From assembly GCA_041665025.1 (NCBI GenBank), contig JBAYJP010000002.1:128691-192690 (forward strand): a stretch of DNA of 64,000 nt, in the 5' to 3' direction. Source of the stretch: Candidatus Magasanikiibacteriota bacterium (GTDB lineage: Bacteria > Patescibacteriota > Patescibacteriia > Magasanikbacterales > UBA922). Below, one piece after another: positions 4,003 to 59,901 of this stretch; within the stretch, counting starts at the first letter, position 1, and the number at the start of each line of letters is the position of its first letter. Both the position numbers and the translations under genes were made by a program. Below the pieces are notes generated by a model. The model did no database searches, was not told where the DNA came from, and was given only the letters and a program-made list of their open reading frames with translations.

Positions 4003-4077
4003 GCGGGCATCATATAATGGTTATTATCCCAGTTTTCCAAACTGGTGACAGGAGTTCGATTCTCCTTGCCCGCTCCA
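4003..4077 (+). tRNA. tRNA-Gly (anticodon UCC) with encoded CCA
   Basis: Manual cloverleaf. Acceptor GCGGGCA/TGCCCGC. D-arm with GG. Anticodon stem CCAGT/ACTGG with loop TTTCCAA (U33, UCC, A37). T-arm AGGAG-TTCGATT-CTCCT. Discriminator T, then CCA. Confidence 0.75.
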
Positions 4078-5658
4078 AGTTGAAAAAACGGTCTGAAAAT
4101 GACTGTTTTTTCTTTTATCTTCGCACAAAACACTTGGTTCTACTCGGGCAATTTTTAAGATTTCGTTTTCAAGCCCGTTCTTCAAAGTGAGGTACGGTTT
4201 TTGTAGTTCAATACTGAGTTTTCCATCTCTAAAATAAAAGTTCTGACCAATGCATTTCAAAATATGCGTTTTGGTTTCAAAGTCCCCATGTTCAAACCAG
4301 TGCTTTGCATATGTAGCAAAATTAAATGTCTTTTCAGTGAGATCAAGCCAGTCGTCTACTCGCGTCTCGGTTTTCCTAATCTCAAGCTCTATTCGCCCCT
4401 TTTCTGACACCAAAGAACTTTTTTGTCCTCTAAATTCTTCTTCCGTTATCATCTCCTTTTTTGCATTTTCAGGAGAGATATACAAATTTATTAAATTATC
4501 TATGCGCCTAAGACAGGAATTATAATTATCTTGAAGGTTGCTGACGATAATGTTTCGGTCATACTCCTCTACAAGATTTTGGTCTCGCAAGACTTGAATT
4601 GCCCAGTGTAAAAATTCCTCTGGGATAGTAATACTGTCTAAGTAATCAGTTACTTGTTTTAACAATGCACTATGTTCTATAGATTTTTGATGACACTCAA
4701 TATCCCTGCGATTATGTGAGCAGTGGTGGTAAAGATACTGTTTAATTTTTCCGGTTGTTTTATTTTTCTTATGTTTTTCTTCGGCGACGATCATTCCTCC
4801 ACACTCTGCGCATTTAATCACTCCGCTAAATGGTAACCTCTTATTTTTTGGCCGCGGTTTACCCTTTTTACCCAAAATGGTCTGTGCCAAATCAAATTCT
4901 TCTTTTGTTATCATTGGTTTGTGTTTACCTTGATAAATCGTACTCTTGTACATAAATTCGCCACAATAAAACATATTATTAAGCATTTTGTAGGTTCCAT
5001 TAACACTCATCTTTTTGCCTTCTGATGTTCTTAAACCCCATTCTTCTGTGGCTATTCTTTTAATCTGCATTACTGAGTAGTTATCCGTTAGAAGTAAATC
5101 CCACATTTTTCTAACTAAAGAGAAACGCTCTTGATCTACGAATACAACTTTATTCCCTTTTTCTCCGAACTTGTCATTCAAGTAACCAATCGGGGCTTTA
5201 CCTGGCCGCCAACCCTTTTCTACCTTAGACTTCATACCGCGTGTAACATCTTTACTTAGGTCAATAATAAACTGATTTGCCATGCCAAGCTCTACTGCCA
5301 TCATAAGTACATTATCTGTCGGCAAATACTCACGCCCCGGGGTTATAATTGATTTCATCACCTCTTGCTGAAGTAACCACTGTATTTCCCCTCCATCCAC
5401 TGGATTTCGCGACAAACGATTGAGCTTCCAACAGATGATCGCGTCGGCTTGTCCACTCTTCAGCATGGCCATCATTTCGTTATACATCGGTCTTCCGGGC
5501 TGTTTGGCTGATTTTGACTCGCCGAATGTCTTAACAACATTTAGCCCCCTACGGGTAACTTCATATGCCAATTCGCGTCGTTGGTCTTCAATTGATTGAA
5601 CCTGACGATCTTCTGCATCGGTAGATTTTCTCAAATACATGATATATCGTAATTTCAT
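4024..5658 (-). CDS. Large serine recombinase (resolvase-type N-terminal catalytic domain, recombinase domain, zinc ribbon, coiled coil). Its 3' end overlaps the tRNA-Gly 3' half.
   Basis: N-terminal MYLRKSTDAEDRQ is the serine-recombinase catalytic Ser motif. Cys cluster CAECGG..HHCSH. 544 aa, typical size of large serine integrases. The ORF reads through tRNA positions 4024-4077. Confidence 0.85.
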   Translation of the reverse strand: MKLRYIMYLRKSTDAEDRQVQSIEDQRRELAYEVTRRGLNVVKTFGESKSAKQPGRPMYNEMMAMLKSGQADAIICWKLNRLSRNPVDGGEIQWLLQQEVMKSIITPGREYLPTDNVLMMAVELGMANQFIIDLSKDVTRGMKSKVEKGWRPGKAPIGYLNDKFGEKGNKVVFVDQERFSLVRKMWDLLLTDNYSVMQIKRIATEEWGLRTSEGKKMSVNGTYKMLNNMFYCGEFMYKSTIYQGKHKPMITKEEFDLAQTILGKKGKPRPKNKRLPFSGVIKCAECGGMIVAEEKHKKNKTTGKIKQYLYHHCSHNRRDIECHQKSIEHSALLKQVTDYLDSITIPEEFLHWAIQVLRDQNLVEEYDRNIIVSNLQDNYNSCLRRIDNLINLYISPENAKKEMITEEEFRGQKSSLVSEKGRIELEIRKTETRVDDWLDLTEKTFNFATYAKHWFEHGDFETKTHILKCIGQNFYFRDGKLSIELQKPYLTLKNGLENEILKIARVEPSVLCEDKRKNSHFQTVFSTWSGQGESNSCHQFGKLG

Positions 5659-5679
5659 ATAATTTTAATTAGGTAAATT

Positions 5680-5797
5680 AAAAGGGACGGCTAAGGTTGA
5701 CCCAAATCCGCTACCCCGAAGGATTGCCTCATTGGCATAGCCGCCCCTTTTAAGGGACGAGACAAAAAAACGGGGTTTTGATGGATTTTGGGTCAAC
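5680..5797. repeat. Nested inverted repeats immediately upstream of the recombinase start (candidate recombinase binding / att or res-like site)
   Basis: Inner IR: AAAAGGGACGGCTA (5680-5693) versus ATAGCCGCCCCTTTT (5737-5751). Outer IR: GGTTGACCCAAATCC (5695-5709) versus GGATTTTGGGTCAAC (5783-5797). Confidence 0.5.
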
Positions 5798-5825: not shown

Positions 5826-6194
5826 TTAGAATGACTTAAAATTTTTGTTAAGGGTCTCCTCAATTTTTGAGACTCTTTCTCCTAAATCAGAGACTTCCAT
5901 GGCCTTAATCAAATGTCCAGATAGGTATCCCAAGCAATTTGCGATCTTTAATTCTATCAAGCCGCTGCGCACTTCATTGATTGTGGTTGCAAGTAGTACA
6001 ACCACATCTTTTGGTTTGTTGATAATAACTGGTGGGAGCCTGCTCCGGTTCTTCTTGGACATTCTTCCACCCCTAAGGATCGCCTCTCTTCTTTCTTTTT
6101 TTGTCTCTGGATTATGGATAAAGCAGAACCTGCTATTTTTCATTGCGCTGGCAAGACATTGTTTATTGTTAAATTTAATATAATTACATCTCAT
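5826..6194 (-). CDS. Hypothetical small protein (Cys/His-containing N-terminus), cargo of the putative element
   Basis: 122-aa ORF. Start overlaps the upstream ORF by 4 nt (operon-like). No recognisable family. Confidence 0.45.
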   Translation of the reverse strand: MRCNYIKFNNKQCLASAMKNSRFCFIHNPETKKERREAILRGGRMSKKNRSRLPPVIINKPKDVVVLLATTINEVRSGLIELKIANCLGYLSGHLIKAMEVSDLGERVSKIEETLNKNFKSF

Positions 6195-6544: not shown

Positions 6545-7081
6545 AAGCGTAGCTTATGGGGTATACCCCCACATATTTCTACTAAGTATTTATCGGATAT
6601 GGACAAGAGGGATTAAAAGCCCACTATTATACAGTAGCTTCTATTTCGGCCGTATTTCTCCGTTGTTTCTCGGTACGGCCTATGGCTCACTCTCCGTGGG
6701 GTCAGTACTCTGCCCGTTGGGTAACTCTATATCGCCAAGCCAATTCAATTTAACGATACAGACGGTCTTGGTTTATCGGCGTAAGGAGTTCCGATTGCTG
6801 TCGGAACCGCATCAGGATTACCAAGTCCTATGATTTGATGGCGTCCACGGGGTGGCTCATAGGTTCGCCCACCGTCCCCCGCAGTATTTAATCCCTCACC
6901 CAATTTCCGATATTATTCTTGAAACTGAGCATCTTCTTTTTTGATTGGTTTATAAATTAACCCAACAAGCTGGACGAGCTTTATTGCTTGTTCTCGTGCG
7001 TCTTCAAGACCGATCTCTTTACCAAAGAGGTTCTTGTAGAGTGTTTGAAATTTTGCAACTTGCTCATCCGATACCATACAA

Positions 7082-7363
7082 CTATGATTTACTGCTATAA
7101 ATTCTATTTTTTAGCATTTTGATATTATCAAAGTAAGCTCTTGCTCCCACATTCATTTTGTCACAAAAATAAGCACCAAACGCCTCCTCAACCTCAACTC
7201 CTTCCCTAAACCCAAAGAGCACCCTACGCGAGTTGGTCTTATCTAAAGATACGAGCTCCAAACCCACAGTTACAAGAGCTGCAGCACAACCCAGATCAGA
7301 TGTTGTGAAAATTTTTGGTTGTTCTTCTAACAATTGTTTATTTAATTCTAATCCAGTTTTCAT
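7082..7363 (-). CDS. Hypothetical protein
   Basis: 93-aa ORF, no recognised motif. Confidence 0.4.
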   Translation of the reverse strand: MKTGLELNKQLLEEQPKIFTTSDLGCAAALVTVGLELVSLDKTNSRRVLFGFREGVEVEEAFGAYFCDKMNVGARAYFDNIKMLKNRIYSSKS

Positions 7364-8338: not shown

Positions 8339-8516
8339 AATAATTTTACTTATATATTACGCCTTTACATTGTAAGTTACAATGTTTTAATCATTATAAC
8401 AATTGTCTAATTACAACCACTGAAAAATTACGCTTGGAACTTGATTTCTGGCCCAAAATGATATAGTATTAAGTGGACAACTTAAGACCTAAACCCGTCT
8501 CGGGCATGGTCAAAAA

Positions 8517-8635
8517 CACTGCACAAACATAGAGATGGCTATTCCGTCTCTGGCATTGTTTGTGCAGTCAGTAGCCGAAAGGTTACTGGGTTCCGAAAGG
8601 GACCGCCAGTGTACGGGTAGCCTTTTTTGTTTTCC
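8517..8635 (+). promoter_or_regulatory. Structured leader with an intrinsic-terminator-like T-run directly upstream of a secreted-protein gene (candidate attenuator / cis-regulatory RNA)
   Basis: Perfect 12-bp inverted repeat ACTGCACAAACA...TGTTTGTGCAGT (8517-8568) enclosing a second stem. Two CCGAAAGG motifs. GGGTAGCC followed by TTTTTTGTTTT (8621-8635). The gene starts at 8652/8661. Confidence 0.4.
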
Positions 8636-8651
8636 GAATATCAATAACACA

Positions 8652-9350
8652 ATGTGTAATATGGATAGATATAAAATTAAAAAAGGAATTTTCAATAAAT
8701 CCACAATAACAATTGTCGTTACTTTTTTGATTTTAGGGTCTGTATATTCTGGTGTTGTGCTGTATAGAAAATCTCTGGCTAACAAAACACAAGCGGAATT
8801 ATTGCACGTCACTGGAGCACAAGAAGAACCCACAGAAATTACAGGAGAGAAATTCTATCAAATTACCCTAAGTTCATCACCATATAGAAGATCAGATGAT
8901 GACCGTCTGGGCGATATAATGCTGGAGGTCAATTTGAAGAATTTGAACATTACTCCTTTTATTACCAATTTAGGTACTGACAAATGCATTCTTTCTGACA
9001 AGTTAGGCAGACAATACCAAGCGGACCTCATAAGCGAAGTCCCACTTAAAAAAGCACTTCTTACGGGGGAGGAAGTATCTGTAAAAATTGACGGGGCATT
9101 ATACATAAATGTTCTTCAAGAAGGAGAAACATCTTGCCAAAAAGAAGGGTCTGGAGTGATTGACTGGGTTCATAACAATGATTGGGTCAAAAACGCTGTT
9201 AAATGCGTCTACAGCCCTTCTGGAGAGTGTACATGTGAGGACATTGGTCCACTCTCAGTGAATGAATGCACTTTCCGCGTTACTTCGGATGGAAAACAGG
9301 CGTCTAACGGCTGGGGTCAATATCCATTAGTTGTACCTATCCAGAATTAA
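8652..9350 (+). CDS. Secreted/membrane-anchored Cys-rich hypothetical protein. The ORF-track start at 8535 lies inside the leader hairpin and is probably not used.
   Basis: MCNMDRYKIKK followed by a TM segment STITIVVTFLILGSVYSGVVLY. Multiple Cys in the C-terminal third. Confidence 0.55.
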   Translation: MCNMDRYKIKKGIFNKSTITIVVTFLILGSVYSGVVLYRKSLANKTQAELLHVTGAQEEPTEITGEKFYQITLSSSPYRRSDDDRLGDIMLEVNLKNLNITPFITNLGTDKCILSDKLGRQYQADLISEVPLKKALLTGEEVSVKIDGALYINVLQEGETSCQKEGSGVIDWVHNNDWVKNAVKCVYSPSGECTCEDIGPLSVNECTFRVTSDGKQASNGWGQYPLVVPIQN

Positions 9351-10712: not shown

Positions 10713-11048
10713 ATGGATAACAATACCAAACAAATAATTGGAGGCAACATCCGCGCAAAACGGGAGGCCTTGGGTTTATCCCAAGAAGAACTCGCCCAAA
10801 AAGTAGGAAAGCAAACTGCTACTTATATAGCTTTTATTGAAAAAGGTGAAAGAAATATAACCACAGTAGATTTAATGGCGATAGCTAAACAGCTTGGCAC
10901 TACTGTTGCGGTTCTTATTGGTGAAGATAAAAAGGCAAAAACACCTTCTGTCGTTGATGTTTTAAGGTCTGCAAAAGAACTCAGTAAAGCTGACCGCGAA
11001 AAAATTGAAGCTATTTATAACTTTGCTAAAAACAAAAAAGATGAGTAA
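10713..11048 (+). CDS. XRE-family helix-turn-helix transcriptional regulator
   Basis: GNIRAKREALGLSQEELAQKVG..TYIAFIEKGERN is the Cro/C1 HTH signature. Confidence 0.85.
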   Translation: MDNNTKQIIGGNIRAKREALGLSQEELAQKVGKQTATYIAFIEKGERNITTVDLMAIAKQLGTTVAVLIGEDKKAKTPSVVDVLRSAKELSKADREKIEAIYNFAKNKKDE

Positions 11049-11556
11049 TGACTACGAAAGTGTATCTGATGATTTGTTGACCCCCAACTTAAAGGGAGCC
11101 AGACTTAGAGCTAAGAATATTTGGAATGAATTTTGTGGAGCAAAAATACCGGTAAAACTTAATGACATAATCCAAAAAATGGGGATTGATATTCGGGGAG
11201 AGGATCTAAATTCTGCCGATGCCATCACAAGAATGGATAGCAACGGCGTTTGCTGTATGGTTTATGACCAAAATAGTTCCGTTGTGAGGAAAAGATTCAC
11301 AATAGCACACGAAATAGGACACTTAGCAATGGAACACACATCATCGTGGGGAGGGTGTAATCAGTTTTCAAAAAAATCTCAGGAAAAGGAGGCTGATGCT
11401 TTTGCTGGTGAACTGTTAGTGCCATCTGAAGACTTGAAGGAATTTACTAAACAAAAACGCACAATTCAAGAAATAATGAGTAGATACTGGATAAGTAATC
11501 CTGCGGCCTTTGTGGCAGTGCAAAATAATCGTTTATTAGATAGGATTAAAATATAA
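11041..11556 (+). CDS. ImmA/IrrE-family zinc metallopeptidase (partner of the XRE regulator)
   Basis: HEIGHLAMEH (HEXXH). Start overlaps the XRE stop by 8 nt. The XRE+ImmA pairing is typical of phage/ICE immunity modules. Confidence 0.8.
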   Translation: MSNDYESVSDDLLTPNLKGARLRAKNIWNEFCGAKIPVKLNDIIQKMGIDIRGEDLNSADAITRMDSNGVCCMVYDQNSSVVRKRFTIAHEIGHLAMEHTSSWGGCNQFSKKSQEKEADAFAGELLVPSEDLKEFTKQKRTIQEIMSRYWISNPAAFVAVQNNRLLDRIKI

Positions 11557-11689
11557 TTTTACTGTGTATTTCCCACATAAAAAATTTGGCAGTTGGTTAT
11601 ATCATGTTTAATCTATTAGGTATTTGGAAAAGACAAAATAATACTTTTTAACTTTACTGCTGTGATACCAGCGTCGTATCTTTTATCAA

Positions 11690-11770
11690 AATAGTTCTGA
11701 CGTCTTTCACTAATTAAGCTCTCGTTAAAACTTCGCTTAACAAGCGTAGTTTTTTGTTTACCCTTACGTG
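11690..11770 (+). repeat. Copy 1 of a repeated sRNA-3'/terminator module
   Basis: GTTCTGACGTCTTTCACTAATTAAGCTCTCGTTAAAACTTCGCTTAACAAGCGTAGTTTTTTGTTTACC matches 14660-14735 and 16446-16490. Confidence 0.5.
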
Positions 11771-11795
11771 TGAGTAGAACAAGGCAGTAAAACTA

Positions 11796-11824
11796 TTGAC
11801 AAAAAGGAGATTTTATGCTATACT
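11796..11824 (+). promoter_or_regulatory. Consensus sigma70-type promoter reading into the GC-rich cassette
   Basis: TTGACA-N17-TATACT in AT-rich DNA. A structured leader (inverted repeats) follows, then the GGAGAGG RBS of the first GC-rich ORF. Confidence 0.6.
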
Positions 11825-11989
11825 TTTCGGTTCGATTATAATTCGAACTGTGCTCTTTTTAGCAAAAAATTAGATTAAAAAGACTTGGGTCACAAGAGAA
11901 CTAAATTATTTTAGTTTTGTTTTGACCCAGGTCTCGTTTGCTTGGTTGCGACGAGACTCCGAGACGGATAACACGGAGAGGTGATACCG

Positions 11990-13045
11990 ATGGACCGCAC
12001 CGAACTGACCACCCTCGCCACCCGCCTGCTCAACCCCATCGCCGGCCTGCACAAGCAGGTGATCGCCAGCTTCGACACCCCCCAGGTGGGCCCGTACCAC
12101 CAGGAGGGGAACTACCTGGTCGACCACCTCATCCGAATGTTCAACGAGTGGAGACGCCTCGCCGGCAGACCCGAGATGTCCGAGGTCCTCGAGGTCGCCC
12201 TCAACCAGGTCGAGTACCACATCGAAAACGGTGAGGACCTCATCGCCCTCTACATCGTCCTCCACGACGCGTGGAAGGGTGACGAGGTGATGCAGGTGAA
12301 GCTCGACGGTCTGCCCGAGATGACCATGACGCGCAAGTCCTGGGCCAAGTGGGTCAAGACCATGGGCTCGCAGGACAAGGACCCCGTCGACATCGCCAAG
12401 GCCAAGGGCATGCTGCAGGTCTCCTACGAAGACCACGCGGAAGTCGCTGCCGTACAGCTTGAGTGCTTCACCGAAACCCTCAAGCTGCCGGAGTGGTTCG
12501 TGCGCGTAGTTCTGCTGCACATGGTGGCCATCCAGCTCGCTCAGGTGAACGTCCCGCTCTACGAGCGGTCGTTCGCCAACCTGCCCGAGGAGGCCTGGCA
12601 GTTCCTGACGGTCGTGACCTGGCTCGACGCTCAGGGTGCGGTCGGGGAAGACGGCAACTGCAACATCTCCGGCTGGAACAACCTCATCTCGTCCAAGTGG
12701 GCCGCCGAGAGCTACAGGCGCGTCGAGCGCGCCATCAGGAAGGCGGACCGACTGGACGGGCAGAAGATGGAGCGCGCTCTGTCCGATCTGCGCAATTCGC
12801 ACGACATCTTCCACAACGAGACGCCGGATGAGTCCATCGACCGCCTGAAGCGCGAGTGCGCGCTGCCCAAGGTCACGGAGGCTGACGTCCGCAACGCGCT
12901 GGCCAACATCGAGGGCCTGGGCGAAGCGCTCATCGCGACCATCGCGGCCGAGATGGCCACGGACGGCAAGCTGAGCCCGGACACGGGCAGGGCGCTCGGC
13001 CGGTTCAACAAGCCGGTCCGCGACGCGCTCAAGAGCCTCGGCTGA
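11990..13045 (+). CDS. HD-motif (LHDxxK) putative metal-dependent phosphohydrolase encoded in very GC-rich foreign DNA. ATG at 11990 is preferred to the GTG at 11981.
   Basis: GPYHQEG...YIVLHDAWKGDE resembles HD-domain His / His-Asp motifs. Strong codon bias. RBS GGAGAGG 7 nt upstream. Confidence 0.6.
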   Translation: MDRTELTTLATRLLNPIAGLHKQVIASFDTPQVGPYHQEGNYLVDHLIRMFNEWRRLAGRPEMSEVLEVALNQVEYHIENGEDLIALYIVLHDAWKGDEVMQVKLDGLPEMTMTRKSWAKWVKTMGSQDKDPVDIAKAKGMLQVSYEDHAEVAAVQLECFTETLKLPEWFVRVVLLHMVAIQLAQVNVPLYERSFANLPEEAWQFLTVVTWLDAQGAVGEDGNCNISGWNNLISSKWAAESYRRVERAIRKADRLDGQKMERALSDLRNSHDIFHNETPDESIDRLKRECALPKVTEADVRNALANIEGLGEALIATIAAEMATDGKLSPDTGRALGRFNKPVRDALKSLG

Positions 13046-13187
13046 CGACCACAACCCCGAACCCCGGGCGAAAGGGGTGACAGTTCGGAAAGACGGACAA
13101 CTCTCGTGTGTCGCGTACGTTCGTACGTAGTGCGATAGTCGAGGAAATACGCGCGGGGAGCTGGATGCAAAAGCGTTCAGCACCCCG

Positions 13188-13255
13188 TGGATTTTCCGGT
13201 GAGACCGGAACTGATGAGTCCTTTAACGATAGAATACGACAGGACGAAATCCAAA
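13188..13255 (+). ncRNA. Type III hammerhead ribozyme (HH1)
   Basis: GGAU-U|UUCCGG-UGAGA-CCGGAA-CUGAUGA-GUCC-(20 nt loop)-GGAC-GAAA-UCC. Full conserved core. Predicted cleavage after 13194. Confidence 0.8.
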
Positions 13256-13407
13256 AACTGTTCTTTACAATTCGACATGGTTCTTAAATAAAAAAACGGA
13301 CGTGGGTCAACACATGGCCAGGAGTTCTCCTGGACAGATGGACCCCACGTCCGGAGGTTTTGGTCAACCACCGGATGAACTTCGAACGCACACACGGAGG
13401 TGCACTC

Positions 13408-14373
13408 ATGACCCAGTTCACGAATGCGGTGACGCACAGCGGCGACATGCACCCGGACGACGTCATGGCGGGTGGCTTCCTCAAGGAGACCAACCCCGGC
13501 ATCCGCTTCGTCCGCACCCGCGACAAGACCGTGCTCGAGGCGGCGATGTCCGACGACGACACCGTCGTCTACGACGTCGGCTTCGTGTACGACGAGTCGC
13601 GGAACTGCTACGACCACCACCAGCGGCAGAACGCCCCCAACCCCCGCCCGAACGGCGTGCCGTTCTCGAGCTTCGGGCTCCTGTGGCAGCGCTTCGGCCT
13701 GTCCTACTGCGAGCGCCTCGTGGCCAAGTACGGCAAGGACATCGACCCCGCCCAACTCCACGAGCTCATCGACCACGAGCTGGTCCAGGGCATCGACGTC
13801 ATCGACACCGGCGCGGTGGACAACCCCCGCTTCCAGCCGAAGGTCGGCGAGGTGTCCGTCGAGGTCAAGACCTTCGCGCTGGCCCTGTTCGAGCTCGCCC
13901 CCCAGCCGCTCCTGTTCGAGATCCCGCCTTACGACGAGGCCTACAACCAGGCCACCGACATCGCCGCGGTCTTCCTGAACCGCTTCGCCGAGGCCTGCCT
14001 GGCCAAGCTCTGCGGGCGTCAGCTTCTCGTGACCGGCCGCCGGGTCGAGGAGTGCGTCGTCGTGTCGCCCAAGGTCATCCCGGACTGGAGCGACGTCGTC
14101 AGCGCGGAGTTCCCCGAGACCCTCTACTACCTCGAGCCGGACACCAACGACCAGACGGGCAAGGCCTACATGCTGTGGCAGGTGCCCGTCGAGCCGCGGG
14201 GCTTCGTCGGCCGCAAGTCGCTCCCGGAGAGCTGGGCCGGCAAGCGCGGCACGGACCTCGTGGCCGTGACCGGCATCGAGGGCTCGGGCTTCTGCCACGT
14301 CGGGTGCTTCGTGGGCGGCGGCGAGACCCTCGAGGCGACGCTCGCGATGGCGAAGGCGGCCATCGCGGCGTAG
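13408..14373 (+). CDS. MYG1/UPF0160-family metal-dependent hydrolase homologue (GC-rich foreign gene)
   Basis: N-terminal THSGDMHPDDVMAGGFL and YDHHQ motifs recalled as the MYG1 signature. Start taken at MTQFTNAV (13408). Confidence 0.7.
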   Translation: MTQFTNAVTHSGDMHPDDVMAGGFLKETNPGIRFVRTRDKTVLEAAMSDDDTVVYDVGFVYDESRNCYDHHQRQNAPNPRPNGVPFSSFGLLWQRFGLSYCERLVAKYGKDIDPAQLHELIDHELVQGIDVIDTGAVDNPRFQPKVGEVSVEVKTFALALFELAPQPLLFEIPPYDEAYNQATDIAAVFLNRFAEACLAKLCGRQLLVTGRRVEECVVVSPKVIPDWSDVVSAEFPETLYYLEPDTNDQTGKAYMLWQVPVEPRGFVGRKSLPESWAGKRGTDLVAVTGIEGSGFCHVGCFVGGGETLEATLAMAKAAIAA

Positions 14374-14477
14374 CGCGGATCAAATCCGCGCAGAGGACCA
14401 TGTCGGCTACTGATTCAGTCGGCGGCGCAAGCTGCTGAAGGAGTCGTAGACGTCGGGGTGTGTATTTCACGCACCCC

Positions 14478-14538
14478 GGTCCTCTACTGATAATGTCAGT
14501 ACTGATGAGCCCATTTGTTTATGCAGGGCGAAAGGACA
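14478..14538 (+). ncRNA. Type III hammerhead ribozyme (HH2)
   Basis: GGUCCU-C|UACUGA-UAAUG-UCAGUA-CUGAUGA-GCCC-(13 nt loop)-GGGC-GAAA-GGAC. Full conserved core. Predicted cleavage after 14484. Confidence 0.8.
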
Positions 14539-14542
14539 AATT

Positions 14543-14575
14543 AAAAACCACTTATAGTAATATGAGTGGTTTTTA
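14543..14575 (+). terminator. Bidirectional intrinsic terminator (start of repeated module copy 2)
   Basis: AAAAACCACT-TATAGTAATAT-GAGTGGTTTTT. Confidence 0.65.
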
Positions 14576-14611
14576 ATTAGAAATAAGATTTATTATTGTG
14601 AATTTGCAGAG

Positions 14612-14640
14612 TTGACCAAAACTAAATTATGCGTTATACT
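14612..14640 (+). promoter_or_regulatory. Consensus promoter inside the repeated module
   Basis: TTGACC-N17-TATACT. The homologous copy at 16197-16225 reads TTGGCC-N17-TATATT. Confidence 0.5.
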
Positions 14641-14646
14641 CATCGG

Positions 14647-14724
14647 CAGTTTCAATACTTCGGTTCTAACCTCCTTTACTAAGGAGCTCTCAATAAAACT
14701 TCGCTCAAACAGCGTAGTTTTTTG
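14647..14724 (+). ncRNA. Candidate small RNA (about 80 nt) ending in an intrinsic terminator. A paralogous copy lies at about 16232-16316 and a 3' fragment at 11690-11750.
   Basis: Promoter about 7 nt upstream. Internal hairpin CCTCC-TTTACTAA-GGAG. Terminator CTTCGCT-CAAAC-AGCGTAG plus TTTTTT. Homologous 5' part (TCGGCAGTTT..GTTCTAA) in copy 2. Confidence 0.35.
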
Positions 14725-14759
14725 TTTACCCGCAAGTGTGAGTAGAACCGAGCTGCAGA

Positions 14760-16020: not shown

Positions 16021-16126
16021 TCCCGTGTATCTCGTCCGACTGGCTGGGTGCGACCACAAGTCAGCCCAGCCTCCTTGAGTGGTAATATTTATTACCTCTT
16101 GAGGAGGACTGACTTGTGTAAAAATA

Positions 16127-16260
16127 TAAAACCACTTATAGCAATATGAGTGGTTTTTGATTAAAGAGAATTATTTACTGTTGTGAATTTACCGAGTTGG
16201 CCAAAACTAAATTATGCGTTATATTCGTCGGCAGTTTGAGCACCTCAGTTCTAATGTTAA
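16127..16260 (+). repeat. Copy 3 of the terminator-promoter-sRNA module (about 85% identical to 14543-14675)
   Basis: AAAACCACTTATAGCAATATGAGTGGTTTTT ... TTGGCC-N17-TATATT ... TCGGCAGTTTGAGCACCTCAGTTCTAA. Confidence 0.55.
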
Positions 16261-16426
16261 GTACTAATGAGCTCAAATAAAATCACTCCAATTTGTTGGG
16301 GTGATTTTATTTTGTACTGTAAAGGGGAACCGAACGGGAAAGGGAGAAAACGGTAGTTTTCTCTTGCCGAGGAAAGTTCACGAAAACCCGAAGGTTTTCG
16401 TGGGAGGAGCCTAGGGCGACGAATGA

Positions 16427-16449
16427 GATTTCTCCTTGCCCGCTCACCA
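16427..16449 (+). repeat. Degenerate direct repeat of the tRNA-Gly 3' end (candidate distal att site of the integrated element)
   Basis: GATTTCTCCTTGCCCGCTCACCA versus tRNA 4058-4077 GATTCTCCTTGCCCGCTCCA. A 15-mer is identical and the rest differs by two 1-nt indels. Confidence 0.5.
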
Positions 16450-16542
16450 TAAAACTTCGCTCAAACAGCGTAGTTTTTGTTTACCGGTAAGGAGAAAACA
16501 ATCGCGGTCGAAGCGACTTGTGATTGTTTAAAAGAGGACTAA

Positions 16543-19789: not shown

Positions 19790-19849
19790 CTAAATTTTGC
19801 ATGTGCAATTATTCTGTGATAATATATGTTGCACATCCAAAAATGGCAT

Positions 19850-19876
19850 GCGGTAGTAGTTCAGTTGGCTAGAACG
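19850..19876 (+). pseudogene. Truncated/degenerate copy of the tRNA-Gly(GCC) 5' portion
   Basis: The first 27 nt GCGGTAGTAGTTCAGTTGGCTAGAACG are identical to 19932-19958. The downstream sequence lacks a foldable anticodon arm. Confidence 0.5.
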
Positions 19877-19931
19877 CCCGGCCGGGAGGTCGCCGTTCGG
19901 CTCTGATTCTACATTCGAATTTGATAAACAT

Positions 19932-20005
19932 GCGGTAGTAGTTCAGTTGGCTAGAACGTCTCCTTGCCAAGGAGAAGGTCGCCGGTTCGAATCCGGTCTG
20001 CCGCT
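19932..20005 (+). tRNA. tRNA-Gly (anticodon GCC)
   Basis: Acceptor GCGGTAG/CTGCCGC. Anticodon arm TCTCC-TTGCCAA-GGAGA. T-arm GCCGG-TTCGAAT-CCGGT. Confidence 0.8.
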
Positions 20006-48804: not shown

Positions 48805-48973
48805 ATAGAATGCTAAGTTAAGATTAATACTAAAAGAAATAGACGAGGTGGATTATAGGGAAAAATGAGAGAAAAGTCAACGCCTCTTAAAATAAAATAA
48901 TCCGCAGTTACGGATTATTTTATTTCCTCTATATTTAGTAAACGCTAAACACATAGGGAATGTGCGCCGGCTC

Positions 48974-49231
48974 TCACGAGAGATACCGGCGCTGACAAGC
49001 CGTCCACGAGCAGAGCGATTTCGCAATCGCCCCGACGTAGAGGACGGGGGCCGTCCACGGCGAGAGTGCCCCCAGGACCGGGAACACTGCCAGGAAGGAT
49101 GACACGAACCCGGCCGTTGCAGTGATGAGCGCGAGGCCGACTGTGAAGAGCCAGCCCTGTGCGATGGACAGGATGGCGAGTACCACCCCGATCATCACTG
49201 CGGAACAGCCCACGCACAACATCGCCAACAT
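48974..49231 (-). CDS. Small (85 aa) 2-3 TM membrane protein in a roughly 320-bp GC-rich islet
   Basis: Own RBS AAGGGGGA 3 nt upstream of ATG. Compositionally distinct from the flanking DNA. Preceded (plus-strand side) by the terminator hairpin AATAATCCG-CAGTTA-CGGATTATT. Confidence 0.5.
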   Translation of the reverse strand: MLAMLCVGCSAVMIGVVLAILSIAQGWLFTVGLALITATAGFVSSFLAVFPVLGALSPWTAPVLYVGAIAKSLCSWTACQRRYLS

Positions 49232-49343
49232 GCGTCCCCCTTTCCGTGGAAGTTGACGACGTGGTCAGACTAACGTAAATTTTATTTTTCGTCAATCTTT
49301 TTGTTATAGTTTTTCCTGCAGTCTTGTGTTACAATATTCCCAT

Positions 49344-52490: not shown

Positions 52491-52751
52491 GTTGGCAAGA
52501 CCTCCACCTGTCCTCCTCCTAAAAGGAGAAGGAACGTTTTTAAGAGAGTTTATTTATCAAAAAAACACCCTTTCCAGGTTGTTTTATTTTTTATTTCTCT
52601 GTCTTCGGGGGTGTTCACGTTGAACACCCCCGTCCTCCTAATAAAGAACATGTTGCCCTCACTTTCGCGGGGCACCCCCCGCCCCGGCCGGAGCCAGGGC
52701 GGGGGTCCCGCTCGGCGACTCAGTCACCAGGAGCAGCGCAGGCTCGAAGCG

Positions 52752-53195
52752 CTAGCTCGTGGCGCACTGGGTCGCCGCGTTGAGGCCGGACGCGTCGGCG
52801 AAGGCACCCACGATCATCACGCCGTTGCGCGCGGTGACCTCGGACGGCGCCATCGCCGCGAAGTAGTCGACCTGCGCCGAGTTGGCCTGCGCCGCCGACA
52901 TCGTCGCGGTCGGGGGCGCGTTCGCCGTCGTGTCGTTCGCCTGGTCGACCGCCTGGGTCGTGTTCGCCGTCTCGGCCGGCGCCACCTCGAAGATCAACGC
53001 CACCGCGTCGTTGTTGCGGTTGACGGCGACCTCCATGAGCGTCGCGGACGACTCGGTGAGCGGCTGGTCGGTGTCCTCGGCGAAGGTCGCGGCGACCTGC
53101 TGCACGGCATGCTGCGGGGTCGCGGCGGAGACGGCCGGAGCGGCGATGGCGGCGATGGCGAGCATCGCGGCGAGGAGCCAGAGTCTCTTCGACAT
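52752..53195 (-). CDS. Secreted Ala/Thr-rich protein encoded in a GC-rich islet
   Basis: Signal peptide MSKRLWLLAAMLAIAAIAAPAVSA. SD GGGAGGA before ATG. GC-rich structured 5' leader at 53196-53420. GC-rich hairpin terminator on the minus strand at about 52640-52700. Confidence 0.55.
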   Translation of the reverse strand: MSKRLWLLAAMLAIAAIAAPAVSAATPQHAVQQVAATFAEDTDQPLTESSATLMEVAVNRNNDAVALIFEVAPAETANTTQAVDQANDTTANAPPTATMSAAQANSAQVDYFAAMAPSEVTARNGVMIVGAFADASGLNAATQCATS

Positions 53196-53566
53196 GGAAT
53201 CCTCCCTGCATGCGGGCCGATCACGTCGGCCCGGTAGCGAAGTCCGTCCCGGGACGCGTCAGTCTCCAGCACCATTGGCAATGAATCACAATCTTTCAAC
53301 TTGGCCCCATTGGGTCGATGGCGCGTTATTACCTTTAATGCGCCGGTTGAGTTGAGAAGATTGCGACTGAGAGCCGCGGGCACCAAAGAGCAAAACGCGG
53401 GGACGTTATAGTCTATCCTATCAATCTCTCTCTCTCTTTACAAGACGTACAGGACTGTTTATCCACATGAGCTAAATTATTTTCAAATAAAAAACAACAA
53501 TTCTTTCATTGCTGTTTTTAATATTGTGTATTACAATAGGACTGCTTAAAATGTTATAAATCGCAT

Positions 53567-59161: not shown

Positions 59162-59396
59162 GCCTCCATAGTTCAACGGATAGAACAGGCCCGTCCTACC
59201 TGCCCGCCATGGCCAGAGCCCCCGTAGTTCAACGGATAGAACAGATCCGTCCTAAGGATAAAATATATGTTCAATTCATATCGGGGGTACTGGCGATGGC
59301 AGGCGGGAGGACAAAATGTATGTTCAATTCATATCGGGGGTACTGGCGATGGCAGGCGGGAGGACAAAATGTATGTTCAATTCATACTGGGGGTAC
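59162..59396 (+). repeat. tRNA-derived repeat array: a partial 5' tRNA copy, one candidate intact tRNA, and 52-bp tandem repeats of its 3' end
   Basis: GCCTCCATAGTTCAACGGATAGAACAGG.. (partial). Then a full cloverleaf at 59218-59289. Then ATGTTCAATTCATATCGGGGGTAC + CTGGCGATGGCAGGCGGGAGGACAAAATGT repeated at 59267, 59319 and 59371. Confidence 0.55.
59218..59289 (+). tRNA. Candidate tRNA-Arg (CCU)
   Basis: Acceptor GCCCCCG/CGGGGGT (G1-U72). D-arm GTTC-AACGGATA-GAAC. Anticodon arm (G)ATCC-GTCCTAA-GGAT(A). T-arm ATATG-TTCAATT-CATAT. Weak 27-43 pair. Confidence 0.45.
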
Positions 59397-59901
59397 CAGT
59401 CTTCGCCTTCGTTCCTCAGGCTACGCCTGGCAAACTAAATTTATATTTGTGTAGACAGAAGTTGAAACTATCTAAAAGTACACAATATCGTATACAAAAT
59501 CCGGGCTTCGCTAAGCTACGCCGGACAAGCTAATATCTAATATAGATCGACTTGTCTGGTGTAATAAAGTGTAGCCGGGATTTTTTGTATAGAAATGTTC
59601 TACGTGGAACAGGCGAAGTTGAAAGTTGTAAAGTAAAAAGTTATAAAGTTTTAAAGTACCAATTTTTGAAGATCTTTATTTAATAGTGTGTTTTAATAAA
59701 AAGGAAAAGCATCAAAAGAGATTAAAATTTATCATTTTATAACTTTAAAACTACGGACTTTGTTTCACGGGGAACATATATTGATATTTTTATGTTGCAA
59801 ATATATGTATTTATAATAAAATAGCTAATTTATATATAAATATGATGTCGTACAATATATAGAATGGGAAAATAAGGTCTTTAAAATAAAATACTATAAT
59901 T

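Follow-up and report, generated by a model that had tools for sequence, protein, structure and literature searches.

In prophage-type regions, single genes may be flanked by hammerhead ribozymes. These cleave themselves in vitro and in vivo, and neither circular nor spliced products of them could be detected (Perreault et al. 2011; PMC3088659). Their purpose is not yet clear. Segments of foreign composition acquired by horizontal transfer are expected to decay towards the composition of the host. In Patescibacteria, up to 13% of genome length has been attributed to such transfer (PMC12455944); therefore, transfer into such a reduced genome would not be unusual in itself, contrary to what an earlier note on the DNA described here had supposed. 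Here, we describe a very GC-rich two-gene cassette (11930-14540) in a stretch of 64 kb (hereafter the window, i.e. the whole stretch analysed), which is part of a 278,561-bp contig from a metagenome-assembled genome (MAG) of Candidatus Magasanikbacteria, a member of the Candidate Phyla Radiation (CPR). This cassette is probably an expressed two-gene operon that is cut by its own hammerheads into single-gene mRNAs and that lies in a mobile-looking region. Its GC-richness is probably a long-standing property of the lineage of its second gene, a MYG1 gene, and of other single genes rather than the trace of a recent import. The cassette and its edges comprise the following features (ORF, open reading frame; UTR, untranslated region; nt, nucleotides; aa, amino acids):

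11717-11780, plus strand: left copy of a 64-nt direct repeat, a terminator-like hairpin with TTTACCC..GTGTGAGTAGAAC
11796-11824, plus strand: sigma-70-type promoter TTGACA-N17-TATACT, 11 of 12 consensus matches, extended -10 TG, in AT-rich DNA
11825-11989, plus strand: structured 5' leader with hairpins at 11828-11850, 11854-11883, 11886-11929 and 11930-11958
11831-11847: perfect palindrome TTCGATTATAATTCGAA, read from the sequence directly 3' of the -10 box
11990-13045, plus strand: ORF1, 351 aa, putative divergent HD-superfamily metal-dependent phosphohydrolase with a C-terminal helical extension
13046-13187, plus strand: GC-rich 3' UTR of ORF1; its last part is a strong hairpin (core 13155-13186) directly adjoining the first hammerhead
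13188-13253, plus strand: hammerhead 1 (HH1), type III, predicted cut between U13193 and U13194
13254-13296, plus strand: AT-rich spacer between the two GC-rich units
13297-13353, plus strand: long nested hairpin in the ORF2 leader, starting with CGGACG and containing one bulged C
13396-13402, plus strand: ribosome-binding site of ORF2, GGAGGTG, 3' of the nested hairpin
13408-14373, plus strand: ORF2, 321 aa, MYG1/UPF0160 family (DHH-family), predicted 3'-5' exonuclease
14374-14478, plus strand: GC-rich structured 3' UTR of ORF2
14479-14537, plus strand: hammerhead 2 (HH2), type III, laid out like HH1, predicted cut between C14484 and U14485
14543-14575, plus strand: intrinsic-terminator-like hairpin with a U run (AAAAACCACTTATAGTAATATGAGTGGTTTTT), first copy of a repeated module
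14685-14748, plus strand: right copy of the 64-nt direct repeat, 88% identical to 11717-11780

The composition of the cassette breaks sharply with that of its surroundings. GC content is 62-72% between 11930 and 14540 and 38% in the surrounding contig; over 12001-14000 it is 0.62-0.65, against about 0.38 over the rest of the window. In 100-nt bins, the rise is located at 11900-11950 and the fall at 14450-14550, and GC drops to 0.37 at 13200-13299, inside the cassette. Elevated GC is limited to each ORF plus about 50-150 nt of UTR on either side. ORF1 and ORF2 have an overall GC of 0.65 and 0.69 and a GC content at third codon positions (GC3) of 0.92 and 0.98, to be compared with a GC3 of 0.21-0.50 in neighbouring genes. 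Their products also lean towards residues with GC-rich codons (GARP 0.26-0.28 versus about 0.19; FYMINK 0.20-0.22 versus about 0.30), and antisense ORFs of 425 and 373 aa run across the cassette. Hence, the picture drawn in the earlier note, i.e. a GC3-biased cassette in AT-rich DNA with long antisense ORFs and with two plus-strand ORFs carrying LHDAWKG, THSGDMHPDD and DHHQ motifs behind GGAG-type ribosome-binding sites, is confirmed in all these points.

The signals that frame the cassette are of host type. A promoter of the same form (TTGACA-N17-TATxxT with TG) also precedes related MYG1 genes at two other loci (L091 and L094). Downstream of it, the leader (11825-11960) forms four hairpins with a minimum free energy (MFE) of -50.1 kcal/mol (z -7.4; none of 200 shuffles was equally stable). 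The switch from AT-rich to GC-rich DNA is positioned between the third and fourth hairpins, and the ribosome-binding site of ORF1, GGAGAGGTGA, lies 3' of the hairpins at 11975-11984. The leader matched no Rfam family. The palindrome, for which no second exact copy was found anywhere in the window, is a candidate operator or simply the stem of the first leader hairpin. Between ORF1 and ORF2, the spacer at 13254-13296 included, no promoter-like site was found, and it is plausible from these signals that both genes are co-transcribed from the promoter at 11796. A repeat search located a second copy of the terminator, 86% identical, at 16122-16170. The promoter in AT-rich DNA followed by a structured leader, as well as the end of the cassette at the first copy of a repeated terminator module, had both been correctly recognized before.

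The 64-nt direct repeats that bracket the cassette are the first two copies of a module repeated three times; the third copy lies at 16441-16504, and the copies are 88% and 63% identical to the reference copy. Over its full extent, this module (14538-14748, 16122-16504 and 11650-11780) consists of a terminator hairpin, a TTGACC/TTGGCC-N17-TATAxT promoter, an RNA of about 80 nt and a second terminator, and its third copy holds a 170-nt insert (16275-16440). Rfam and ribozyme searches gave nothing credible for it. It may represent a family of small RNA genes with variable genes sitting between them.

Both hammerheads lie on the coding strand, one 3' of each ORF. A full type III descriptor, which demands the core, H17, the A15.1-U16.1 pair and all three stems, has exactly two matches in the window, HH1 and HH2, against 0.01 expected per 64 kb in first-order Markov simulations; the simple core pattern CUGAUGAG...CGAAA likewise has two matches against 0.04 expected. 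The two carry the CUGAUGA...GAAA core and the A15.1-U16.1 pair, with U13193 (HH1) and C14484 (HH2) as H17, and obey the core and closing-pair rules (1.1-2.1, 10.1-11.1) of PMC3088659. For both, the three-way junction is the MFE structure. HH1 has a stem III of 5 bp, a stem I of 6-7 bp with a short loop and a stem II of 5 bp with a long loop; in HH2, stems I, II and III have 7, 4 and 5 bp, and stem III is open-ended as in HH1. The earlier proposal that the second gene is flanked by ribozymes is borne out in the form of two canonical hammerheads that bracket ORF2, according to both the descriptor and the MFE folds.

Moreover, the ribozymes are set in strongly structured RNA. A GC hairpin ending in GCACCCCG lies directly 5' of each of them. 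The segment 13140-13200 is predicted to fold at -34.9 kcal/mol (z -5.9), the ORF2 leader (13290-13415) at -48.5 kcal/mol (z -3.1) and the segment behind ORF2 (14374-14490) at -66.3 kcal/mol (z -7.3). In the latter, GAGGACC (14393-14399) is predicted to pair with GGUCCUC (14478-14484), so that the 3' end left by HH2 would be base-paired. Only five nucleotides separate HH2 from the terminator. Since each ribozyme sits directly behind a GC hairpin, and HH2 directly before the terminator, each looks like a 3'-end-forming element. The 362-nt gap between the ORFs does hold HH1 and a nested hairpin, as had been noted; the hairpin itself was slightly misread, since it spans 13297-13353, starts with CGGACG and not CCGGACG, and contains a bulged C. 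Neither the leader nor the other GC islands of the window nor two further loci with GC-rich genes described below (L012 and L013) gave any other credible ribozyme or RNA family.

The product of ORF2 matches the MYG1 profile PF03690 over residues 8-319 of 321 (E 1.1e-47, 163.6 bits for a cut-off of 22.1) and is labelled MYG1 family protein by NCBI. The products of both ORFs are identical to NCBI proteins of this contig. H10, H15, D17, D18, D56, D69, H70 and H71 are all present in it and are invariant or nearly so among 15 family members. This full-length match and these DHH-type His/Asp residues confirm the MYG1-like hydrolase claimed before and make ORF2 a predicted MYG1/DHH-type 3'-5' exonuclease. 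To our knowledge, the activity of bacterial MYG1 proteins has never been assayed. Mammalian MYG1 is reported to be a 3'-5' RNA exonuclease (PMC6582341).

ORF1 is more divergent: it matched no family in Pfam (E up to 1), PF01966 included, nor in NCBIfam. A word-indexed protein search gave only two relatives, at 33-34% identity, and an exhaustive HMMER search about 100 distant ones among 1.84 billion proteins. In an alignment of 54 family members, H92, D93, Y146, H149 and D213 are invariant and H37, H46 and H177 are conserved in at least 90%; seven of the 54 relatives give weak PF01966 matches (best E 3.3e-4). The AlphaFold model of ORF1 has a pLDDT of 92.4, and its best structural matches are HD folds. 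Sequence and model thus support an HD-fold metal-dependent phosphoesterase-type protein. The earlier reading of ORF1 as an HD-motif protein is upheld by residue conservation and predicted fold and not by the Pfam HD profile (PF01966), and the idea that both products are of the metal-dependent phosphoesterase type is supported, for ORF2 by PF03690 and for ORF1 by residues and fold. ORF1 was found neither in phages (tblastn) nor in viral contigs. For MYG1, phages gave one weak partial tblastn match and viral contigs only relatives at 27-31% identity. Without viral matches to ORF1 and with only weak or distant ones to MYG1, a phage origin of the cassette is unsupported.

From these features, we propose the following course of expression. 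The host-type sigma-70 promoter at 11796-11824 would yield one transcript with the leader, the HD phosphohydrolase, the MYG1 exonuclease and the terminator at 14543-14575. Self-cleavage after U13193 and C14484 would split it into two separate messages and remove the AU-rich terminator. The mRNA of the HD protein would then carry a 2',3'-cyclic phosphate behind a terminal GC hairpin. The MYG1 mRNA would be a 1291-nt RNA (13194-14484) that begins with a 5'-OH and two hammerhead hairpins and has its 3' end base-paired. With such cuts and structured ends, the ribozymes would serve to process and insulate the mRNAs from within the transcript itself. At the GC-rich genes, some force would in addition act against the AT bias of the host.

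The comparison of MYG1 genes across genomes indicates that this GC-richness is old. Relatives of ORF2 at 47-62% identity occur in MAGs of Uhrbacteria and of other Patescibacteria, as well as in contigs from metagenomes. In our comparative set of ten clade loci, every MYG1 gene is a GC island (gene GC 0.54-0.72, GC3 0.67-0.97, flanks 0.34-0.47), and a neighbour-joining tree unites the ten in one clade, in which the Uhrbacteria-type copies group together and the window copy falls outside them. All relatives at least 47% identical are found in genomes of 34-47% GC. High-GC genomes yield only relatives at about 30-33%, the best matches outside the clade do not exceed 36%, and no clade member was found in a high-GC genome among 185,579 species representatives. 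A metagenome scan for close members of the clade returned two loci, both already in the set (L102 = L005, L103 = L006). Since all ten genes are islands in AT-rich genomes, a recent import from a high-GC organism does not explain their composition. Hence, the transfer from a high-GC donor put forward in the earlier note is not borne out, nor did the cassette turn up as ordinary genes of a high-GC organism. Beyond the clade, MYG1 genes mostly match the composition of their own genomes. Saccharibacteria MYG1 genes of two subclades (L046, L073, L077 and L088) have a GC 0.11-0.17 above their flanks; other CPR MYG1 genes outside the clade and these subclades show no GC excess.

Furthermore, L005, L006, L009 and L010 share a PriA-Def-HlyIII...MYG1 neighbourhood, with the gene order of a Uhrbacteria MAG. 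Among these four syntenic genomes, MYG1 identity is 60-81%, in step with that of the neighbouring genes, and L006 and L009 are the closest pair for MYG1 and HlyIII alike. The four-fold sites of the neighbours are only 0.31-0.42 identical in the more distant pairs, close to saturation, while the GC3 of MYG1 stays at 0.90-0.93 in L005, L006 and L009 and is 0.67 in L010. Between the window MYG1 and the Uhrbacteria-type copies, four-fold identity is 0.53, about the value calculated for saturation with only C and G. GC1 and GC2 (first and second codon positions) are 0.66 and 0.41 in the window MYG1, versus 0.79 and 0.49 in actinobacterial MYG1 at an equal GC3 of 0.98, which is the reverse of the amelioration pattern. 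We conclude that MYG1 has long kept its GC-richness although the genomes around it are AT-rich. A description of such persistent gene-specific GC-richness in this clade and its companion genes in CPR genomes was not found in the literature searched.

Were the high GC in the service of RNA structure, coding regions should be more stably folded than their synonymous-codon shuffles. This is so for all ten island MYG1 regions (z -1.5 to -4.7). Seven housekeeping controls have a mean z of about -0.9 and reach from +1.6 to -2.1; in three higher-GC genomes, MYG1 lies between -0.8 and +0.6. Other GC-island genes show no consistent excess, with three at z +0.4 to +1.8 and one at -1.85. RNAalifold found no shared structure of the coding region (-49 kcal/mol over 1035 columns, covariation term +1.36); therefore, a conserved mRNA fold is unsupported. 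The generic excess of structure in island MYG1 mRNAs remains an observation without explanation.

Other GC-rich genes occur in the window and at the related loci, together with genes that suggest a mobile surrounding. Outside the cassette, the window contains:

4003-4077: tRNA-Gly(UCC), overlapping the 3' end of the serine recombinase gene
4024-5658, minus strand: large serine recombinase gene
8486-8604, plus strand: LOOT RNA (RF03000), 81 bits for a gathering score of 46.4, overlapping the start of the listed ORF 8535-9350
10713-11048, plus strand: XRE-type helix-turn-helix (HTH) gene (Pfam HTH_3, E 4.5e-14)
11005-11556, plus strand: IrrE/ImmA/CapP-like M78 metallopeptidase gene (Peptidase_M78, E 2e-17; PADLOC capP, E 7e-23)
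48945-49295: third GC island, GC 0.59, with a hydrophobic 85-aa ORF (49231..48974, minus strand, GC3 0.81)
52640-53390: second GC island, up to 0.72 GC, with a 147-aa ORF (53195..52752, minus strand, GC3 0.97) whose N-terminus is signal-peptide-like

The surroundings of the cassette are therefore a variable region resembling a mobile element, and an integrated element enclosing the cassette may have one of its edges at the tRNA-Gly/recombinase site. The HTH and peptidase genes, which overlap at the start of the latter, immediately precede the cassette on its own strand and are a possible regulator pair by sequence; the peptidase also matches several RmrA models of PADLOC. A gene for a TrmB-type regulator lies downstream of the cassette, and neither a reverse transcriptase nor a ligase gene was seen near it. 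ORF2 has no PADLOC or PHROG match and ORF1 nothing in PADLOC beyond a weak Cas3-HD match (E 0.006); a toxin or anti-phage role of the cassette is a lead only. Elsewhere in the window, tRNA copies and repeats occupy 59162-59413 and 19847-19958: three tandem 53-nt repeats (59255-59413) start inside tRNA-Arg(CCU), 59162-59198 is similar to the 5' half of tRNA-Arg, and the start of tRNA-Gly(GCC) recurs without a change at 19847-19876.

The second GC island has a GGAGG ribosome-binding site, is set between a DUF559-like gene and AT-rich DNA, and contains neither a hammerhead nor an Rfam match; the third lies between a membrane pyrophosphatase gene and polA. At L012, a GC-rich 205-aa gene precedes MYG1 in tandem, and the two have the same conserved sequences on either side, a 5' leader and about 150 nt of 3' trailer (repeated segments at 4640-4815, 5560-5780, 5850-6003 and 7010-7150 of that locus). 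The trailer, CCAGCGGACCCACAAGyATGCTGGATGAAAGTT...GCATCCCCCTCC, matches no Rfam family and occupies the position that the hammerheads have in the window. L013 (1-2100 and 5850-7560) is an array of small GC-rich genes plus MYG1 within flanks of 0.33-0.41 GC, adjoined by the gene of an insertion sequence (IS)-type integrase; its genes have a common leader CATGAGCCT..AACTTAGAAAGGAGCAAATCATGTCC, which includes the first codons, and a common terminator GCTCCCATCCTTTTTT. Among the GC-rich-gene loci compared, hammerheads are confined to the window. The companion genes of MYG1 at other loci are related neither to ORF1 nor to one another; hence, the HD-MYG1 pairing is not conserved. The long leaders before the island MYG1 of L091 (1-489) and L092 (1-449) have a common motif, GAAAGGCCG...AAATAGyACCnGTTTTGGA, which is absent from the window leader and may be a conserved regulatory RNA. 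At L006 (329-2092), a 587-aa gene with a GC of 0.63 and a GC3 of 0.81 stands in an Uhrbacteria-type genome of 0.44 GC; neither L005 nor L010 has it at this position, which shows that some GC-rich genes are variable insertions.

Each genome appears to wrap its GC-rich genes in repeated flanks of its own, for which no explanation was reached. As a tentative generalization, about which we are far from confident, the Uhrbacteria/Magasanikbacteria group of the CPR might hold "GC-locked" genes, i.e. mature-mRNA-sized segments kept GC-rich, at a GC3 of 0.8-0.98, in the face of the AT pressure of the genome, by selection or a local biased process beyond the time at which the synonymous sites of their neighbours saturate. 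The MYG1 clade would be the recurring member of this set. Each genome would provide its own leader or 3' element (hammerheads in the window, the trailer of about 150 nt in L012, the shared leader and terminator in L013), and the whole might form a new small regulon or gene-cassette system. If this were true, GC-locked genes could be, for instance, mRNAs that resist A/U-preferring RNases, or the means of a throttled translation of toxic nucleases.

Several points weigh against the self-cleaved operon of long-standing GC-richness that we favour. Composition, motifs, folds, family assignments and the comparative pattern are computed results, from which transcription from this promoter, activity of the two hammerheads, the nature of the RNA ends and the enzymatic activities of the proteins are predicted. 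Both hammerheads score below the gathering score of Rfam Hammerhead_3 (RF00008), with 22.3 bits for HH1 and 27.4 bits (E 0.007) for HH2 against 48.5, a shortfall that we attribute to their short stem III and to the long loop in stem II, since the core aligns without mismatch. No hammerhead was found in the relatives of the cassette that were fetched, so the ribozymes lack comparative support; about 1.04 Mb of other fetched loci gave a single descriptor match, at chance level, in L084. The pairing of ORF1 with MYG1 was found in this window only, and the coding regions share no conserved fold. As to the age of the GC-richness, the force that would keep it high is hypothetical, the comparative set is small (ten loci) with phylogenetically related members, and the source organism of L013 is labelled Gammaproteobacteria. 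Finally, since the cassette has a different, mobile-looking context from that of the Uhrbacteria-type copies, the window copy may have come by transfer from another CPR genome.

The most serious rival, repeated recent import from an unsampled high-GC donor, seems doubtful to us. In its simplest form, a 2.6-kb segment would have come from a high-GC organism, host or neighbour of the symbiont, and would not yet have drifted to AT, and we hold this version to be no more probable. Abrupt boundaries, GC-shifted amino-acid usage in both proteins, a serine recombinase and an XRE/ImmA pair in the surroundings, 64-nt direct repeats on either side, two more islands with unrelated small genes and the commonness of transfer in Patescibacteria (PMC12455944) all fit such an event. 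However, the bracketing repeats are only 88% identical, and the host-type promoter, boundary hairpins and terminator show that the segment is well integrated. An import would also leave unexplained why identity outside the clade stays at or below 36%, with no close relative in any high-GC genome, why all ten members sit in AT-rich genomes, why MYG1 keeps its place in four of them and diverges there in step with the adjacent genes, and why extreme GC3 goes with moderate GC1 and GC2, unlike amelioration. The sharp composition switch on both sides could also betray a high-GC contig misjoined into an AT-rich genome bin, and the region is indeed broken into short contigs in the Logan assembly of SRR6484324, which align to 11900-13212 and 13304-14507. 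Yet the first of these contigs (L002) passes the left junction by about 30 nt, from AT-rich DNA at 11900 into the GC-rich ORF, and a single 278,561-bp NCBI contig covers both sides. The promoter, boundary hairpins and terminator, which is repeated in the window, frame the segment, and islands of the same kind occur in independent assemblies from NCBI, JGI, ENA and Logan. An assembly chimera is therefore very unlikely, to the point of being negligible.

Two further rivals concern function. The XRE protein and the CapP/ImmA-like peptidase could repress the promoter until DNA damage, the HD and MYG1 proteins then acting as toxic or defensive effectors of a stress- or phage-induced response, which would be compatible with the anatomy of the operon. 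We regard this as an open but rather weak contender. The capP (E 7e-23) and RmrA matches of the peptidase, the overlap of its start with the HTH gene, the perfect palindrome directly after the -10 box and the weak Cas3-HD matches of ORF1 speak for it, and CapH/CapP-type pairs control many defence operons (10.1101/2022.04.27.489752; PMC13228613). However, the pair lies on the same strand as the cassette, about 240 nt off and with a terminator-like repeat in between, whereas CapH/CapP pairs sit on the opposite strand; the palindrome has no second copy, and control of a mobile element (ImmR/ImmA) would suit the pair equally well. Moreover, MYG1 has no PADLOC or PHROG match and stands among housekeeping genes in L005, L006, L009 and L010, where the Pfam matches of the neighbours include no regulator pair. 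By contrast, it is improbable that the 1291-nt MYG1 RNA is excised by the two hammerheads and closed into a circle by ligation, in the manner of retrozymes or viroid-like elements. A single gene bracketed by two hammerheads of the same orientation and a GC-rich, highly structured RNA would suit such an element. RtcB-type ligase uses 5'-OH and 2',3'-cyclic phosphate ends, which are those that the excised RNA would carry. Yet the stem III strands differ (GUGGAUU versus GGUCCUC) and their chimera mispairs at 15.2-16.2, so that joined ends would not rebuild a hammerhead. In addition, the two flanks are not mutual repeats beyond the ribozyme core, the vicinity of the cassette showed no gene for a reverse transcriptase or a ligase, and Perreault et al. 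detected neither circular nor spliced products (PMC3088659).

A self-cleaved operon with old GC-richness would matter in several respects. The placement of the hammerheads, HH1 between a GC hairpin and the AT-rich spacer and HH2 between a GC hairpin and the terminator, offers a concrete and testable role for gene-flanking hammerheads, namely defined and protected mRNA ends. A GC3 above 0.9 in genomes of 38-47% GC, where synonymous sites elsewhere are saturated, contradicts the expected decay of foreign composition; it points to gene-specific selection or to a mutational or recombinational bias that acts locally within very small genomes. Confirmation would mean that a compositional island in such an organism cannot simply be taken for a recent transfer any more, and the locus would give a handle on how these symbionts regulate potentially toxic nucleases.

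Compared with known systems, the cassette shares some traits with each and departs from each. As in CapH/CapP, ImmR/ImmA and DdrO/IrrE pairs, an HTH gene is followed in the window by an M78 peptidase gene, here next to two nuclease-like genes in an operon. CapH/CapP pairs described so far are encoded opposite to the operon that they control and have a promoter region in common with it (10.1101/2022.04.27.489752), whereas the pair of the window lies on the strand of the operon, ends about 240 nt from the promoter and does not share it. Integron gene cassettes, which have an attC site after each ORF and an IntI tyrosine recombinase heading the array, were considered because the GC-rich genes of L012, L013 and the window carry genome-specific repeated flanks; the one recombinase seen where the window is annotated is of the serine type. 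ORF2 is like the MYG1/UPF0160 family in its full-length profile match and its His/Asp motif positions, but it belongs to a separate bacterial clade, at most 36% identical to other bacterial MYG1 proteins. ORF1 was compared with the HD phosphohydrolases YhaM (a 3'-5' exoribonuclease), Cas3-HD, PhnZ/TmpB/MIOX and chain 3wfo_A (labelled poly A polymerase / tRNA processing enzyme); unlike these, it has about 140 extra C-terminal helical residues and no Pfam HD match, and belongs to a small family that is without a name in the sources checked.

The closest parallel is with the clustered bacterial hammerheads of PMC3088659, which similarly occur several together, in one orientation and in one transcription unit, bracket individual genes in regions with integrase or recombinase and regulator genes, and follow the same core and closing-pair rules; there too, the expected outcome is the processing of a long transcript to gene-length mRNAs. 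The window differs from these systems by its CPR host, by its two phosphoesterase genes of GC3 0.92-0.98 in a 38% GC genome, by the GC hairpin directly 5' of each ribozyme and the terminator right behind HH2, by the lack of related loci with its ribozymes and by a cleavage that is predicted from sequence. Hence, gene-flanking hammerheads in a mobile-looking region are already known, and it is the pairing of an HD-fold protein with MYG1 that is particular to this genome. The persistent gene-specific GC-richness of the MYG1 clade and of companion genes in the CPR is unusual. Like ameliorating transferred islands, the cassette shows a sharp break in GC and codon usage, a variable region and direct repeats at its edges. 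Unlike them, it has no donor-like relatives and its high GC is limited to the ORFs and short UTRs; since the island state is common to a whole deep clade, syntenic copies included, it persists instead of decaying.

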